A stretch of 64,000 nt of DNA, taken from assembly GCA_963809895.1 (NCBI GenBank), contig CAWELD010000003.1, positions 1,856,001 to 1,920,000 of the forward strand, given 5' to 3'. The DNA is from an uncultured Gemmatimonadales bacterium (GTDB lineage Bacteria > Gemmatimonadota > Gemmatimonadetes > Longimicrobiales > Gaopeijiaceae). The notes beneath the pieces are model-generated. The model was not told the DNA's origin. It saw nothing but the letters and a program-made list of their open reading frames with translations, and did not search any database. Made by a program: the position numbers and the translations under genes. Of the stretch, positions 2,446 to 40,600 are shown piece after piece. The stretch's first letter is position 1. Each line of letters opens with the position of its first letter.

Positions 2446-2454
2446 CGGCGCTAG

Positions 2455-3630
<1,176 letters not shown>

Positions 3631-14952: not shown

Positions 14953-17325
14953 CTACGCCGAGGGTGGGGCACACTCCACAGCATCGAGCCCTTCGCGGAG
15001 CCGGAAGACGTCGCTCACGTGATCCACTCGGCCAGATCCACCACTCTCCACCCGTCGTTCGGTCTGCACCAGAATCAGCGAGCCACCACCGGAATAGCCC
15101 TTTGGGGCCTCGTCGGCGGCGCGATGCAGGTAGGCGGTCCATCTCCAGCTCAGCGCGAGGAACGGCCCCCAGCGCATGGGTGCGCGGAAGTCGAAGATGT
15201 GCCCGCCAGCGCGCAGATCCCGTGCCTGCCACTCCTCCGGCGTGACGACCGTGACCCCGGCGAGGGGGGCGTCGAGGACCGCCTGGGGTAGGTTCGCCGA
15301 CAGGAGGAACCTCGGCACCTCCTCCACGCCGTGCGACGACGTCGCGATCCCCTGCAGGGACTGGGCGCCCGGTATGGCCGGCCACGGATAGGCTCCTCCG
15401 GCGAAGATCGAATCCACCAGCGGTACCAGCACCGCCACCACCGACTGGGGATCCACCACTTCGCCCTCACCCATCCGGCGGCGGATCTCCCAACGGGCAC
15501 TGCGCACCCGCGCCTCGTCGCCAGAGAGAACGTCGGCCCGGAGCTCGTCGGCGGTTCGCGCGGGGATCGCATCCGCCGCGCGCAGGATCTCTTCCAGGAC
15601 CACCCGCGCCGAATCGTCGGCTGGTGGCCATCCTGCGACCAACTCCGCCATCGGATCTCGGCCGGTGCGGGCGGCGTAGAGACGTAAGGCACGGAGGATC
15701 TGCCTTCGGTCTCGACCACCACCGTTCCACCAGCTCCGCCACGCCGTCCAGTCCGCTCCGGCCGGAGGCACCGCCGGCGCTCCCTTCCGCGCGACCCCGC
15801 GACCGTAACGAATCGCTTCGGCCACCAACGTCGCTCCCTCCTCCTGGCGCACGACCAGAGAATCGAACCAGCGAGCGGGATTCCAGGCGAATCGGCCCAC
15901 GAGCGCCGCGTCGCGCAGTCGAGGCTCGGAGGAGGCTGCGCCGCGCTCGATCATCAAACGGCACGCGGCGGGCTCGCATCCCCAGCGGGTGGAGTCGGGC
16001 TCCGCGATCGGTCCCGAACGCAGGAGCGTGCCGGCCAGCTCGAGGTAGTCGTAGCGGGCAGGGGCGCCCAGGCGCCACAGACGCCCGGGGTCCTCCAGAT
16101 AGGGGAGCACCCGCTCCGCGTCGGCCACGGTGAGCCGCCGCGAGTACGGAATGTGCCCCCGTGCCGTCCTCAACAGGGTCAGGGTATCCTCCCTGGCCAG
16201 AGCGAAGACGCGTGCGAGGGAGTCCATCTGGTCAGCCGTGCGCGTCCCACTCGTATCGTAGCGCCGCAGCAGACTCTGCAACTCGGCGATCTCGTCGGGG
16301 TCCCGGCTGACACGCCAGCGCTCGACCAGGGAGTCGGCAAGCACGGGGTCACCGGCTCGCAGACGCCGCTGAAGGTCGGTGGTTGGGAGCATGAGCATGC
16401 CGGTGCTGGCCCGGGCGCGGGCCGCCCGCATCGAGTCCTGGAGTGCCTCTAAGCTCGCCGAGTCATAGCGCGTCCAGGTGCGCACCCGCTCCATCCGAAC
16501 CCCCGACGTGAGCGGACCGCTCACCGAGTCGCGCAGCACGGCGCGGCCCTCCCAACGCGCCGTGTCCGCTCCGCCCACGCGAAGCATGGTCTCCGGCTCC
16601 ACGAGAGCGATGCCGCGGGTGCGTCCTGCGAGGGTGCGGTCGACCGGCCGCACACTCTTCAGGAGCACGTCGAGGTCAGTCGCCTCGTACTGAACCTCCT
16701 CGACCATCCGGATCCGAAGCGCGCGTCCCCCGCCGGTCATGGTGTCGCCCAGAACCTCGAAGCGACGCACCGACCGATACGATTCGCTCAGCCCTTCACC
16801 CGGCTCCGCGACGAAGGCCAGGGTATCGATCCACCGCTCTCCTGCGGCCAGGTCTTCGCGGGGGAGTGGCACCCACAGCTCGCGGAACCGGCTCGACGGC
16901 AGGCGCAGCGCGACCGCCCGCAACTCAGGCCGTCCTTGCAGCCGCCACACGCCGTTGCGGCGACGATCCGCGGCGTCGTCCCACCTCGTGGAGGACAGGG
17001 CCGGAAGTCGCATCTGCACGGAGCGGATACGACCGCTCTCGTCGAAGTACGCCTCGGCATCGACCAGGCCGGCCGTCACGGTCCAGACCGGATCCCGGAG
17101 CATCGGCGACCGGATCTCGCGAGCGTGGAACGCCTCGACTCTCTCCGTGGTGGGCACGAACTCGGGCGGTGCGTCCTCGTGGATCCAGCGCTCCTCGGTG
17201 ACGCGGCGGATGACCTGGACGGCGGTGGTGTCGGCGGGGACTTGGGCGTCGGCGTGCGCCGGAACGACGACCCCCAGAGCGAGGGCGGTCAGCGTTACGC
17301 GGGGCAAGCAGCGGCACACGGACAT
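14953..17325 (-). CDS. Large secreted hypothetical protein; true C-terminus probably ...GWRVVDLAEWIT ending near 15015 after a 1-nt indel
   Basis: Signal peptide LTALALGVVVPAHADAQ; long ORF; no recognisable family. Confidence 0.65.
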   Translation of the reverse strand: MSVCRCLPRVTLTALALGVVVPAHADAQVPADTTAVQVIRRVTEERWIHEDAPPEFVPTTERVEAFHAREIRSPMLRDPVWTVTAGLVDAEAYFDESGRIRSVQMRLPALSSTRWDDAADRRRNGVWRLQGRPELRAVALRLPSSRFRELWVPLPREDLAAGERWIDTLAFVAEPGEGLSESYRSVRRFEVLGDTMTGGGRALRIRMVEEVQYEATDLDVLLKSVRPVDRTLAGRTRGIALVEPETMLRVGGADTARWEGRAVLRDSVSGPLTSGVRMERVRTWTRYDSASLEALQDSMRAARARASTGMLMLPTTDLQRRLRAGDPVLADSLVERWRVSRDPDEIAELQSLLRRYDTSGTRTADQMDSLARVFALAREDTLTLLRTARGHIPYSRRLTVADAERVLPYLEDPGRLWRLGAPARYDYLELAGTLLRSGPIAEPDSTRWGCEPAACRLMIERGAASSEPRLRDAALVGRFAWNPARWFDSLVVRQEEGATLVAEAIRYGRGVARKGAPAVPPAGADWTAWRSWWNGGGRDRRQILRALRLYAARTGRDPMAELVAGWPPADDSARVVLEEILRAADAIPARTADELRADVLSGDEARVRSARWEIRRRMGEGEVVDPQSVVAVLVPLVDSIFAGGAYPWPAIPGAQSLQGIATSSHGVEEVPRFLLSANLPQAVLDAPLAGVTVVTPEEWQARDLRAGGHIFDFRAPMRWGPFLALSWRWTAYLHRAADEAPKGYSGGGSLILVQTERRVESGGSGRVDHVSDVFRLREGLDAVECAPPSA

Positions 17326-17354
17326 GCGCCTAAGATGGGATTTCTGATCCCCGT

Positions 17355-35257: not shown

Positions 35258-35482
35258 GTGCACATCCACATTCGACTACGCGAATGCATGGACCGCCACG
35301 AAGCGCGGACCGGCCGGCGAATCAGCTACGGGGATGTGGCTGAAGCAACGGGCCTGAGCCTTGCGACGATTGAATCCATCGGATCACGCGAGCACTACAA
35401 CGCGACCCTCGCGATCGTGGCGAAGCTCTGCCGGGCCCTTTCAGTCGATATCGCAGAGATTCTCGAACTGAGGGACAGCTAA
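35258..35482 (+). CDS. Small Xre/Cro-type HTH regulator divergent from the methyltransferase
   Basis: ISYGDVAEATGLSLATIESI...KLCRALSVDIAEIL; 74 aa from GTG. Confidence 0.75.
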   Translation: MHIHIRLRECMDRHEARTGRRISYGDVAEATGLSLATIESIGSREHYNATLAIVAKLCRALSVDIAEILELRDS

Positions 35483-36564: not shown

Positions 36565-37032
36565 ATGTGGCTGGGTGGTGTCAGACTTCTGTCTCAATCG
36601 CGGCATTGGTTCTGGAGACCGCACCGAGACGAGCTTCCTCGCGGATGAGATCTCGCCGCGCAGCCGAAGGTCGTCTCTACACCTGAATCTCAAAAGGCTT
36701 CAAGGCAAGAGGTCCCCATCTGGAAGACATGGTCTGACCCACCCGCGAGCATGCCGCGTAACGTGAGGGGGCTTCCGAACCGGCCCTCAACCAAACGTTC
36801 GACTCGCAGGTTACGCTGAGTCCCGTCGGCTCCGCCAGGGCCTTCCACATGGTTGTGGGTCGATTCGGACGAAGCGCTGCGCCGGTCACCGCGCGGTGCG
36901 AAGCCGAACGCCTCGAGTCAAGTGAGGCGCGAACCGGGCGTTCAAGCCCAGCCCTCCCGATCATGGAGCCGTGACGAGAATGGGCAAGCCACCGTCGTTG
37001 GCCGGCCGATGCGTCTCCGGCACGCCGGGCAA

Positions 37033-37639
37033 TCACACAAGCCACACAGTGACGCCGAATGCACCGAGGACGATCGCTCCGAGGATAAGCCATGGACGCT
37101 GTGCTGCCGCAGACCAACGGAGGCGGGTGAGGAGCTTGCCCCCGAAACTGACCTTGAAGTCGTCAGGCTGTCGCACAGCGAACATCCCGTAGTCGACCGG
37201 CTCGTGGTTCTCAGGAAATCGCTTCAATATGTCGTTGTAGTCCTCAATGAACCCCACCACATCGAGCGCTTCGGCCTCAAGGCTGGCAAGGTCGTAGAGC
37301 CGTCCGAGCCTCGATCGCCGCTCGATGATGTTGGTCGGCCCGAAGCTCATACGACTTCCCATACTCTAGAACTGACACCACAAGAATGGCGATCGCCCCG
37401 ACGGCTGCAAGAAAATCGACCTGCCCGGAGCTTCCAAACGACCCACCGACCAGACCGAAGGCGTTTGCCAAGGACAGGCCCACCAGTCCGAGCGAAGCGA
37501 AAGTTACCGCCCAACGGGACGCCACGCCGGCACGCGCCAGACGGCGGTACGCTTCAAACCGGGCCCCCTTGGTTGTCCAGACCTTTCTCAGTTGCCGGGC
37601 CCTTGAGCCCTCGTCCTTCAGGTTCTTTGGCCGGATCAC
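37033..37639 (-). CDS. SLATT-domain (SLATT_5-like) membrane effector, one frameshift near 37315
   Basis: WTTKGARFEAYRRL, two TM helices, ENHEPVDY, C-terminal TM helix. Confidence 0.8.
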
Positions 37640-37658
37640 GTGACCCCCACCGAGCGTT

Positions 37659-37802
37659 GGGATCCACTGCTACATGATTCTGATGGTCGCTTCGCACTCA
37701 CCGTCAGCACGAAGGGTAGAAGCTCCTACGGAGACTCTGATCACAGCCGCCCTACTCCATGGCGTAGGGGTTCGCCCGTCCCGGGCGAGAGCAGTGGATC
37801 CC
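37659..37802 (-). ncRNA. Putative RT-associated structured ncRNA
   Basis: 13-bp perfect terminal inverted repeat (37659-37671 / 37790-37802) enclosing four hairpins; fills the RT-SLATT gap. Confidence 0.7.
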
Positions 37803-37808
37803 TAAGGG

Positions 37809-39188
37809 TTAGGAGACGAATGCGATGTCCGCTTCAAGATCCGCAATCTGCTGGTTCCGGTAACGTTCGAACAAGTCATTCACCTGTTCCTCACTCACGA
37901 AGTCGTCAGGTCCGATTCGACCTCTCTCAACGAGGAAATCCAGCCTCTGAGCCATCGTCTCAAAGACATCGTAGTTGTGAACGTAGGCACCGGAAGGCCG
38001 ATGGCGAACCTCATGGAATGCGCGGGCCAGACGCTTGACGTCACCTAGTGACTTTGTAGGTAGGCCCGCGAGCCGCGGGAGCATCGAACGTACGGCCGCG
38101 TCCATCCGAAAGAGCAAGGTCTCGTCAGTCATCGCGGAGAAGTAGAACATCCAGCCATACCTTCGCGACTCGCTGATCGCGCCGGTGATTCGCTCGTTCA
38201 ACTCATCGATGAAGACCTGCCTGGCCAGGTCCGGGGTCATCCAGTCGTGCTCTCGGATCAATCGCTGGCGGTCGCGGCGATACCGCGTTGCCCGTGCTGC
38301 GATCTGCTCGAGGAAGCGATCCACGGAGCTGTCACGCACGGTTACCAAATCGCCGGTGAAGACGTAGCCAAGGAAGCCGATAGCCCATTGAGCTCAAATC
38401 GGCCACCCTTGGCCGTTTGGGGCTCCAGCGGATGCACACGGAGGCCGCGATCCTCCAGCTCACCAGAGACGAACTCATAGACCGTCTCCACCGCATCCGC
38501 GCCCACGATCAGCAGCAGATCATCGACGAAGCGGAAGTAGGCTACCGCGTCTTCCCGGATGCGTTCATCCAAGTCCCCAAGGTAAATGTCGGCGAGGACG
38601 TTGGAGATGCGACAGGCCTTGGGGCACTCCCGCGGTCCGGCGGGTACGCGGAACCTGAGACGTCTACTCCCTTCGCGGCACCGCCGGGTTTCGAATCGCC
38701 CTGTAGACCAACTAGACTCAAAGTCCGGCAGGCGCCGCCGCACAAGGGGCATCAACTTCTCATGAGACACGGAATCGTAGAACTCCTTTATGTCCAAACG
38801 AAGGCATGCATGGGTGCCAGGCTCAGCCTCCGTGACGGCGGTGAGGGCCTCCCGAACCATTGTGTTGGGAAGGACTCGACCAACATGTCCGGAGAACTCC
38901 TCATGTAGGCGTTCCTTAGTTGGAGGAGTGCCAGGCGATCCCTCGCCGTTGGGATGCAGATCTTCGCGCGGCGGGCGAGCTTGGTCCCTTGTTTCGCAAC
39001 ACCTGGGCGTAGTTCCCGAACCGATAGGTGCCGTCTTGGACCTTCTGAGAGACCGTTGCTGCCTCCTCCTCCAGACGATCATCTAAGGCGCTCGGAGCAA
39101 CCCGATCCATACCTCTGGTTTCGTCGAGTCTGAGGCGGTCTCTGTATAGACCAACCAGAGCCTCTAGCGACCAAGGATCCGCCACCAT
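37809..39188 (-). CDS. Defence-associated reverse transcriptase (UG17/DRT10-like), multiply frameshifted as assembled
   Basis: Reconstructed across frames: PREICIPTARDR, DIKEFYDS, GVPQGLSISNVLADIYL, YFRFVDD, GFLGYVF, NERITG...YGWMFYFS. Confidence 0.85.
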
Positions 39189-39213: not shown

Positions 39214-40043
39214 TCATCTCTCTCGTGCCTCATGGGTCTCAAGCAGGAACGTGGCGAGCGTCGTCGCCGCCCCCACGGCAAGACGTGCGTGCCGGGGATG
39301 AACACCTTGCGCCCTCCCGTGCTTTCCATGGCCCGTGCCGTACAGATTTCGAAGCTCAGCAAGGCCGTTAACTAGCGTCGCGAGGTTGCTGAGGAGCCGT
39401 CTGATGGACTCGGCACCCTTGGCGGCATCGTCGATGTCGGCCGGAAGAAGCGTCAGGCCTTTCTCGTCTCCTTCACCAGTCGCGGAACGTCCCACTTAGT
39501 ATCGATCGATACTCCACGCTCGGTGAGGATTGTCTTGCAGGTCGTCTCCACTAGTTCCTTCGCGGTACCGATGGCGAGACTAGGGTCCTGCTCTAGGGCA
39601 CCGCGCATGCGGTCGATCTGCCTCCGGAGTTCCGGGGCGTCCATAGACACGAGCGCGGTTCGTAGAGAGCTGTGTCCGGGAAGGCGTAGGCGCCCATCAA
39701 CCTCCTTCAAACCATCACGCGCCAACCACCGCCGCAACACGGCGGCTGTCTCTTCAGCCCAGTCGGCGTTGTGTCCGCCCCCGGATGCCTCAATGTCGAG
39801 ATTCACGAGGACAGCCTCGTAGACGCGAAGCACTCGGTTCGCCTGGACCGGATCGGACCAGTCGATGCCGTGATAGTACTGTTCGACCAAAGACCGTCGC
39901 TGTCCTCCCACAGGCGGATCGAAAGACAGGTCAGCCTCAAATCCCTCCGCACGAAAGGCGTCGTCAATCTTTGCCAACGTCGTCGAGACGAAGTACTCGC
40001 GGAATTCCTGCCGCGTCTTGATGCTAACGAGGTCTCGCGTCAT
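39214..40043 (-). CDS. AbiJ-like abortive infection protein (Abi_C C-terminal domain), one frameshift near 39460
   Basis: AIGTAKELVETTCKTIL and GLAELRNLYGTGHGK...HARLAV. Confidence 0.85.
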
Positions 40044-40433
40044 GCCAGTACCTAGTGCCTATCGACGTTGCTTAACACGCATGCAATCGCTCCCATGTCG
40101 CGCTTCACTTGACTGCCCATATCCGAGTCCTGCTGTGGCTTCATGGCCTGAGTGTACGCCTGGCACTGGCACCGACCGGCCACGCCCTCCAGAATGGCGC
40201 GTGAAAGCTCCGTCCGCAACTTATGCGATGGGATGATGCAGCCGCGCTGCACACGCACCACATCGGAGACTTGGCAACCGCTCCGCAATCAACGCCCAGC
40301 GATCCCCTGAGTGGACCAGCAGCCCAACTGGCCGGACGAACCCGCCCGGAAAAGGCCCCCCAAGTGCCGGGATGATCGTACCGCCCACCCCGCCCATCCC
40401 GGTGGTCAAACCGTGCAGGCAACCCCCCCGTCC

Positions 40434-40600
40434 GACCCCCCGCCCAGGGGCCTCTCCTGCGGGGAATCCGTCGCGGCGCAGCCCGCGAACGCAGCGGGGG
40501 CTCGCCTTCCGCCGCGCAGCGACGGCTAGCGAGCCCCCGAATTTCCCAAACCCCAGTTGGGCGAGCGTGCCCCGCAGGGGAGGCCCCTGAGCGGGGGGTC
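40434..40600. repeat. 167-bp element with 31-bp terminal inverted repeats (REP/MITE-like)
   Basis: 40434-40464 and 40570-40600 are complementary at 29 of 31 positions; internal IR CGGGGGCTCGC/GCGAGCCCCCG. Confidence 0.75.

Follow-up and report, generated by a model that had tools for sequence, protein, structure and literature searches.

A divergent UG17-B DRT10 locus with frameshifted genes in a genome of the Gemmatimonadota

In the stretch of 64,000 nucleotides analysed here (the window), which comes from an uncultured Gemmatimonadales bacterium, a region of the minus strand had been predicted to encode a defence reverse transcriptase (RT) of the UG17/DRT10 type, a structured RNA and a SLATT membrane protein, all hidden by frameshifts. 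This raises two questions: does the locus belong to DRT10, and are its genes truly broken? Our analyses show that it is a copy of this already described anti-phage system, a divergent member whose gene order is known and whose integrity is uncertain. All features described below lie on the minus strand of the window unless indicated otherwise.

The reverse transcriptase, its family and its partner gene

The minus strand between positions 39188 and 37809 encodes one RT that is spread over several frames. When the clean 3' part of the gene was used as a protein query, 41 full-length relatives were obtained, of which the closest, P0001, P0002 and P0003, share 77, 72 and 61% identity with it. Frameshift-aware alignment with each of these three intact RTs resulted in an identical set of eight single-base indels, four extra and four missing bases, located near positions 38978, 38962, 38918, 38712, 38675, 38658, 38609 and 38385, all inside the first ~800 nt of the gene. 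Once corrected, the gene contains 459 codons without a single in-frame stop (alignment spanning 39188-37812), and 305 of its 459 residues are identical to those of P0001. The 7-8 single-base indels in the 5' ~850 nt and the absence of stops that had been noticed earlier are thus borne out, as is the existence of a single RT with intact motifs; the length that had been given, ~450 aa, becomes 459 aa. The motifs DIKEFYDS, GVPQG, FVDD (the active site) and FLGY are all present, as are the three catalytic aspartates, and the C-terminal residue is a serine at the priming position. Residues named for the Escherichia coli H120 enzyme were mapped by their offset, without the H120 sequence; 15 of 21 are matched, including all three catalytic aspartates, and the other six comprise the priming tyrosine, which is a serine here, one residue whose mapping is doubtful and four that also differ in P0001. 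The AlphaFold model of P0001 (pLDDT 88) contains a C-terminal helix (443-460), as described for DRT10.

The SLATT gene (37639-37033), which encodes a two-transmembrane effector of ~201 aa, contains one extra base near 37310. Both of its halves match Pfam SLATT_5, the family that had been proposed as a check, above the cut-off, and 113 of 195 residues are identical to those of the intact homologue P0043. A co-oriented Abi_C/AbiJ-like gene (40043-39214) with one missing base near 39457 is located directly upstream of the RT gene; being no known DRT10 component, it is context. The indel tally given previously, about 7-8, agrees with the eight in the RT gene, but it omitted a ninth in the SLATT gene and a tenth in the Abi_C gene. 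A promoter scan gave no signal above chance.

For all three RT fragments the top PADLOC model was RT_UG17 (E values of 2.7e-38, 6.5e-25 and 2.3e-11). With the intact relatives P0001-P0003 this model reached E values of 1e-117 or lower, while the runner-up model stayed at 1e-34 or higher, a margin of more than 80 orders of magnitude. In a maximum-likelihood tree built quickly from 36 RTs, none of them an experimentally tested DRT10, and with SH-aLRT support only, the window RT and P0001-P0003 form a four-membered branch (support 100) within a clade of 22 (SH-aLRT 98). Fifteen members of this clade come with DNA, and in all 15 the RT gene comes first. Five plasmid RTs form a clade of their own (support 95) outside it, four of them with the SLATT gene first and one without an annotated SLATT gene. 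This last RT, from the Rhodococcus plasmid NZ_CP083976.1 (L113), is UG17-like and groups with SLATT-first systems, yet no SLATT gene is annotated alongside it. Four group II intron-like RTs from related genomes fall outside the clade of the window RT, and so the phylogenetic placement that had been proposed as a check turned out in favour of UG17. In 36 of 45 related loci the RT is followed within 500 nt by a co-oriented ORF; the remaining nine have a contig edge, a broken RT or no co-oriented downstream ORF. Of the 36 ORFs, 35 are SLATT_5 above the cut-off, which confirms the expected SLATT linkage in homologues.

Might a SLATT gene lie by chance beside an RT of another class (that of a group II intron or retron, DRT2 or DRT3)? 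In the PDB, the nearest matches by sequence and by fold are RTs of group II introns and DRT9/DRT2, the PDB search gave no chain named DRT10, and a PDB sequence search with the C-terminal part of the RT gave no match. The scores of the NCBIfam RT models for these classes, however, are far below cut-off, RT_UG17 leads by the margin given above, and the tree and the conserved SLATT linkage both point to UG17; we regard a chance association of this kind as refuted, with next to no probability left to it. The UG17/DRT10 identity originally proposed is therefore backed by profile, tree, SLATT linkage and the C-terminal priming serine, together with the RNA layout described below. In the available text of Sanchez-Nieto et al. 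(bioRxiv 10.64898/2026.04.29.721553), subtype UG17-B is defined by an RT upstream of SLATT with a gap of ~200 bp; the RT-first order of our locus is this known subtype and hence not new. The earlier expectation that automated annotation would miss the locus holds only in part: single-gene profiles recognize all three RT fragments and both SLATT halves, although a whole-system caller might fail on the broken genes.

No relative was found among viral contigs and phage records, and a metagenome scan for related loci resulted in one locus, cut inside the RT. RT_UG17 matches in 9 of 41 genomes of the same order were not counted as DRT10 because the four that were placed in the tree fall outside. 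A stricter search was positive for 3 of 401 genomes of the phylum, including the present one.

The predicted non-coding RNA and its template

The RT and SLATT genes are separated by 169 non-coding nucleotides (37808-37640), in which we predict, from its fold and a layout common to relatives, a non-coding RNA (ncRNA) of 144 nt (37802-37659). Its predicted layout consists of a perfect 13-bp basal stem, SL1 (arms 37802-37790 and 37671-37659), four internal hairpins, SL2 (37787-37773), SL3 (37771-37747), SL4 (37737-37719) and SL5 (37716-37687), and two loops, A (37746-37738) and B (37686-37672), the latter containing an A-B-A' template. The length of the basal stem was matched in none of 1000 dinucleotide shuffles (longest, 10 bp), and the core folds with a z-score of -3.4, compared with only -0.96 for a 186-nt stretch that includes flanks. 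The same layout and a similar loop A are present in the relatives L061, L062, L038 and L045, and the basal stem shows covariation among 20 more distant relatives. The structured gap that had been noticed from the letters of the sequence is thus upheld. A covariance model built on 20 proteobacterial RNAs (R1) did not detect the window RNA significantly (E 0.59 over 37656-37805); it also missed most of the divergent relatives, being significant over the RNA at 2 of 14 loci. A second model, built on four closer RNAs (R2), gave no match to the window RNA at E <= 0.5, and an Rfam search of the RNA gave none either. Since neither covariance model was significant, membership of the RNA rests on position, layout and motifs.

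The putative template (37684-37675; A, 4 nt; B, 2 nt; A', 4 nt) starts 2 nt after the SL5 anchor. In the geometry reported for Eco3DRT10, the 5' linker has 2 nt and the 3' linker 4 nt, and no product is made once two linker bases are lost (available text of Ramirez et al., bioRxiv 10.64898/2026.06.29.735271). As the 4-2-4 arrangement starting 2 nt after SL5 equals the published spacing, a 6-nt repeat is predicted, and the cDNA would consist of 5'-TCTGAT-3' units. The direct repeat in loop B has a period of 6 at offsets 2-4 and a period of 9 at offset 1 only. A 9-nt register (3-nt A, 6-nt B), which would leave DRT10 membership unchanged, finds a basis in this 3-nt direct repeat of period 9 that begins 1 nt past the anchor, and the RNA sequence in the assembly may itself carry an extra or missing base. 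Nevertheless, we consider the longer register improbable: it leaves a 3' linker of only 2-3 nt, while the 6-nt register fits both published linkers, and among 25 non-redundant relatives, 24 have a repeat of at least 2 nt that begins at offset 2 and 10 have one that begins at offset 1, a weak test in that 20-22 of the 25 also have short repeats at offsets 0, 3 and 4. Apart from scattered doublets, no tandem array of the predicted 6-nt repeat was found in the assembly.

How the system would work is carried over from published DRT10s, as described in the available texts of Tang et al. (bioRxiv 10.1101/2025.10.16.682844), Ramirez et al., Chen et al. (bioRxiv 10.64898/2026.10.08.757509) and Sanchez-Nieto et al.; family, gene order, SLATT linkage, residues, RNA layout and A-B-A' template were read from the sequence of the locus, whereas its expression, repeat unit and defence activity are presumed by analogy. 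Two RT molecules would assemble on one ncRNA, and the RT would prime itself on its C-terminal serine. It would then copy the A-B segment of loop B and re-anneal at A', generating long single-stranded DNA of 6-nt repeats, whereas loop A would give rise to short products only. Phage infection would disturb the turnover of the repeat DNA, by which the SLATT membrane protein would be activated and abortive infection would follow.

The origin of the frameshifts

The eight indels of the RT gene lie closer together than a uniform distribution would predict (P = 0.014), and all ten indels of the Abi_C-RT-SLATT block are single-base events without stop codons, with the RT set adding up to zero. The window RT keeps 72 of 87 conserved columns (one of the others being lost to a break), compared with 74-75 in the intact relatives, and its excess in substitution rate is not significant (chi2 <= 1.6). 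In a simulation of neutral decay with five substitutions per indel, the probability of losing at most one extra conserved column was 0.016; decay at five or ten substitutions per indel is accordingly unlikely, but at three per indel it was not rejected (P = 0.13).

Indels of a similar kind occur elsewhere in the genome. They affect 11 of 238 core-gene orthologues, and a separate count in conserved genes gave eight insertions and four deletions in 189 kb. With 21 gap openings over 19.9 kb, near-identical repeats of the genome contain roughly one gap in every kb. Frameshifts are also present in the window at ~42770, ~46700, ~47710 and ~53540, in three genes that are all intact in genomes of the same genus, and serve as a marker of the error rate of the assembly; we take these genes to be pilT, one for an outer-membrane protein of ~2,060 aa and a permease-like gene. 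The frameshifts in pilT and the large outer-membrane gene lie within 12 kb of the block. The assembly consists of 11 contigs, two of which, C1 and C11, are 96-99% identical variant copies of window positions ~2,450-3,180 and ~15,970-17,350, which suggests a mixture of strains. A link of the indels with methylation of a neighbouring SacI-type site was dropped: two indels are at or near such a site, but the core-gene indels are not.

Two readings have to be weighed against each other. The one we favour, with a confidence well above even but short of strong, is a UG17-B DRT10 in a low-GC defence island whose ten indels most likely arose as errors in the consensus of a multi-strain assembly of long reads, the locus itself being intact or having been so until very recently. 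Indels at 3.3 per kb (10 in ~3.0 kb) are, however, ~30-80 times as dense as the background (0.044, 0.063 or ~0.1 per kb), so that ordinary error is insufficient and this reading has to assume that quality fell locally. The same density counts in favour of real indels, that is, of the same UG17-B system truly inactivated, a recent pseudogene cassette whose loss may have been favoured by DRT10 toxicity in a host without SbcB. Each of the three genes in the block is broken, in contrast to the adjacent C5 methyltransferase gene, which has no break in 382 aligned codons; one otherwise invariant RT residue is altered (P70 to N), and private changes are slightly more numerous in the window RT (42 vs 37, 43 vs 32), an excess that is small and not significant. 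The attC-like site downstream (see below) has a degenerate R'' box, and sbcB mutants of E. coli tolerate inactive but not active DRT10 (available text of Sanchez-Nieto et al.), and PF08411, the SbcB family, was not found in the present genome.

Inactivation fits less well with the absence of stop codons and multi-base deletions, with insertions making up half of the events and with the intactness of conserved columns and RNA stems. Moreover, as two genomes of the same class keep intact UG17-B RTs and also lack PF08411, the absence of SbcB does not force loss. We therefore consider true inactivation a serious alternative, but a clearly less probable one, and the indels themselves are probably assembly errors rather than real.

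Genomic setting, related systems and host

The block is part of an island of ~60% GC between pilC and unrelated genes, and its neighbours in this defence island encode a SacI-type restriction enzyme (36693-35479) and the C5 methyltransferase (35181-33964). The small plus-strand ORF between these two genes (~35260-35482) looks HTH-like by eye and has no family match. No DNA match to the island longer than ~940 bases was found in the other 300 genomes of the family that were searched. An inverted repeat at 40434-40600, between pilC and the edge of the island, has arms of 31 bp that are 94% complementary and lie 105 nt apart.

In an integron cassette, one or more genes precede a co-oriented attC whose R'' and R' boxes are paired, and a GTTRRRY core lies ahead of the genes. 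An attC-like site is located downstream of the SLATT gene (36918-36749), with an R' core at 36762 and a degenerate R'' that is complementary to the upstream core at 5 of 7 positions. Its homologues are the repeats that make up an integron-like array at C3:3.21-3.26 Mb; a profile containing array copies only matched the site with E 1.7e-35. In that region (C3:3,211,000-3,263,000), an integrase-family gene that scores below the IntI cut-off is followed by ~12 attC-like repeats of ~190 nt, which lie between short genes and IS-like and toxin-antitoxin-like ORFs. An IntI above the cut-off is encoded at C10:600,939-601,880, where no attC-like repeat was detected nearby. A core-like GTTRRRY site 33 nt before the Abi_C start (40076-40070) could form the 5' end of a 3.3-kb cassette; as the motif occurs six times on the minus strand between 33 and 40.7 kb, this is weak evidence. 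No integrase was found in the island. The attC-like homologue, the core-like site and the genomic IntI make it possible that the block is a stranded three-gene cassette, but R'' is degenerate and the relatives differ: the attC-like profile gave no match in related DRT10 loci and paired core boxes were present in 3 of 38 downstream regions, so that a cassette context is not general. A literature search joining integron, cassette and DRT10 found no paper. In addition, a 17-bp inverted repeat with one mismatch (36916-36932 and 40098-40114), one arm of which abuts the attC-like site, brackets Abi_C, RT, ncRNA and SLATT. It is unique in the genome at up to two mismatches and may have arisen by chance; no target duplication was seen at it.

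Comparison with known systems is limited to what the available texts of the reports state. UG17-B is likewise tripartite, with the RT upstream of SLATT_5 and an ncRNA in a gap of ~200 bp, and has been associated with Pseudomonadota and Bacteroidota (Sanchez-Nieto et al.). The window system differs in forming a separate four-membered branch, in having FVDD instead of YVDD and a terminal serine, in its host, in which SbcB was not detected, and in genes that are broken in the assembly. The E. coli H120 DRT10 (Chen et al.) has an RT of 469 aa, whose named residues map on P0001 at offsets of +1 to +3, and, judging from its numbering, it is probably RT-first. The window RNA fits the H120 ncRNA, which is described as having two loops and five stem-loops, of which SL3 and SL5 each contain a flipped base, together with A-A and C-C pairs. 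H120 primes on Tyr467, where the window RT has a serine, and its R77 and H313 are not kept in the window branch. Eco3DRT10 (Tang et al.; Ramirez et al.) shares the C-terminal serine primer, an A-B-A' with a 4-nt A, the 2-nt 5' linker and five stem-loops. Unlike the window locus, its SLATT and RT genes overlap with SLATT first, its repeat is 9 nt long and the hairpin that is missing belongs to the opposite half of the pseudo-symmetric RNA.

According to the same text of Sanchez-Nieto et al., E. coli needs SbcB to tolerate DRT10. SbcB (PF08411) was detected neither in the present genome, whose completeness is 95%, nor in four relatives; the intact UG17-B RTs mentioned above belong to two of these relatives. 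An intact, serine-primed FVDD branch of DRT10 that travels as a 3.3-kb three-gene integron cassette, makes 6-nt repeat DNA and resides in a host lineage without SbcB/ExoI is a combination that we hold to be rather unlikely. If it were true, both the brake and the phage trigger would be unlike those of the E. coli systems, and an integron integrase could shuffle DRT10 in and out.

The locus leaves the definition of DRT10 unchanged; what it offers beyond membership, namely the predicted repeat, the absent brake and a possible cassette, is modest. It also illustrates that long-read assemblies can conceal such systems behind indels. DRT10 has been connected with the way in which telomerase originated, and the locus extends this system by a divergent branch and by the prediction of a 6-nt repeat. 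If the locus is intact, DRT10 would be present in a host without SbcB, its only known brake, which would bear on how the repeat DNA is restrained and how SLATT is switched on.
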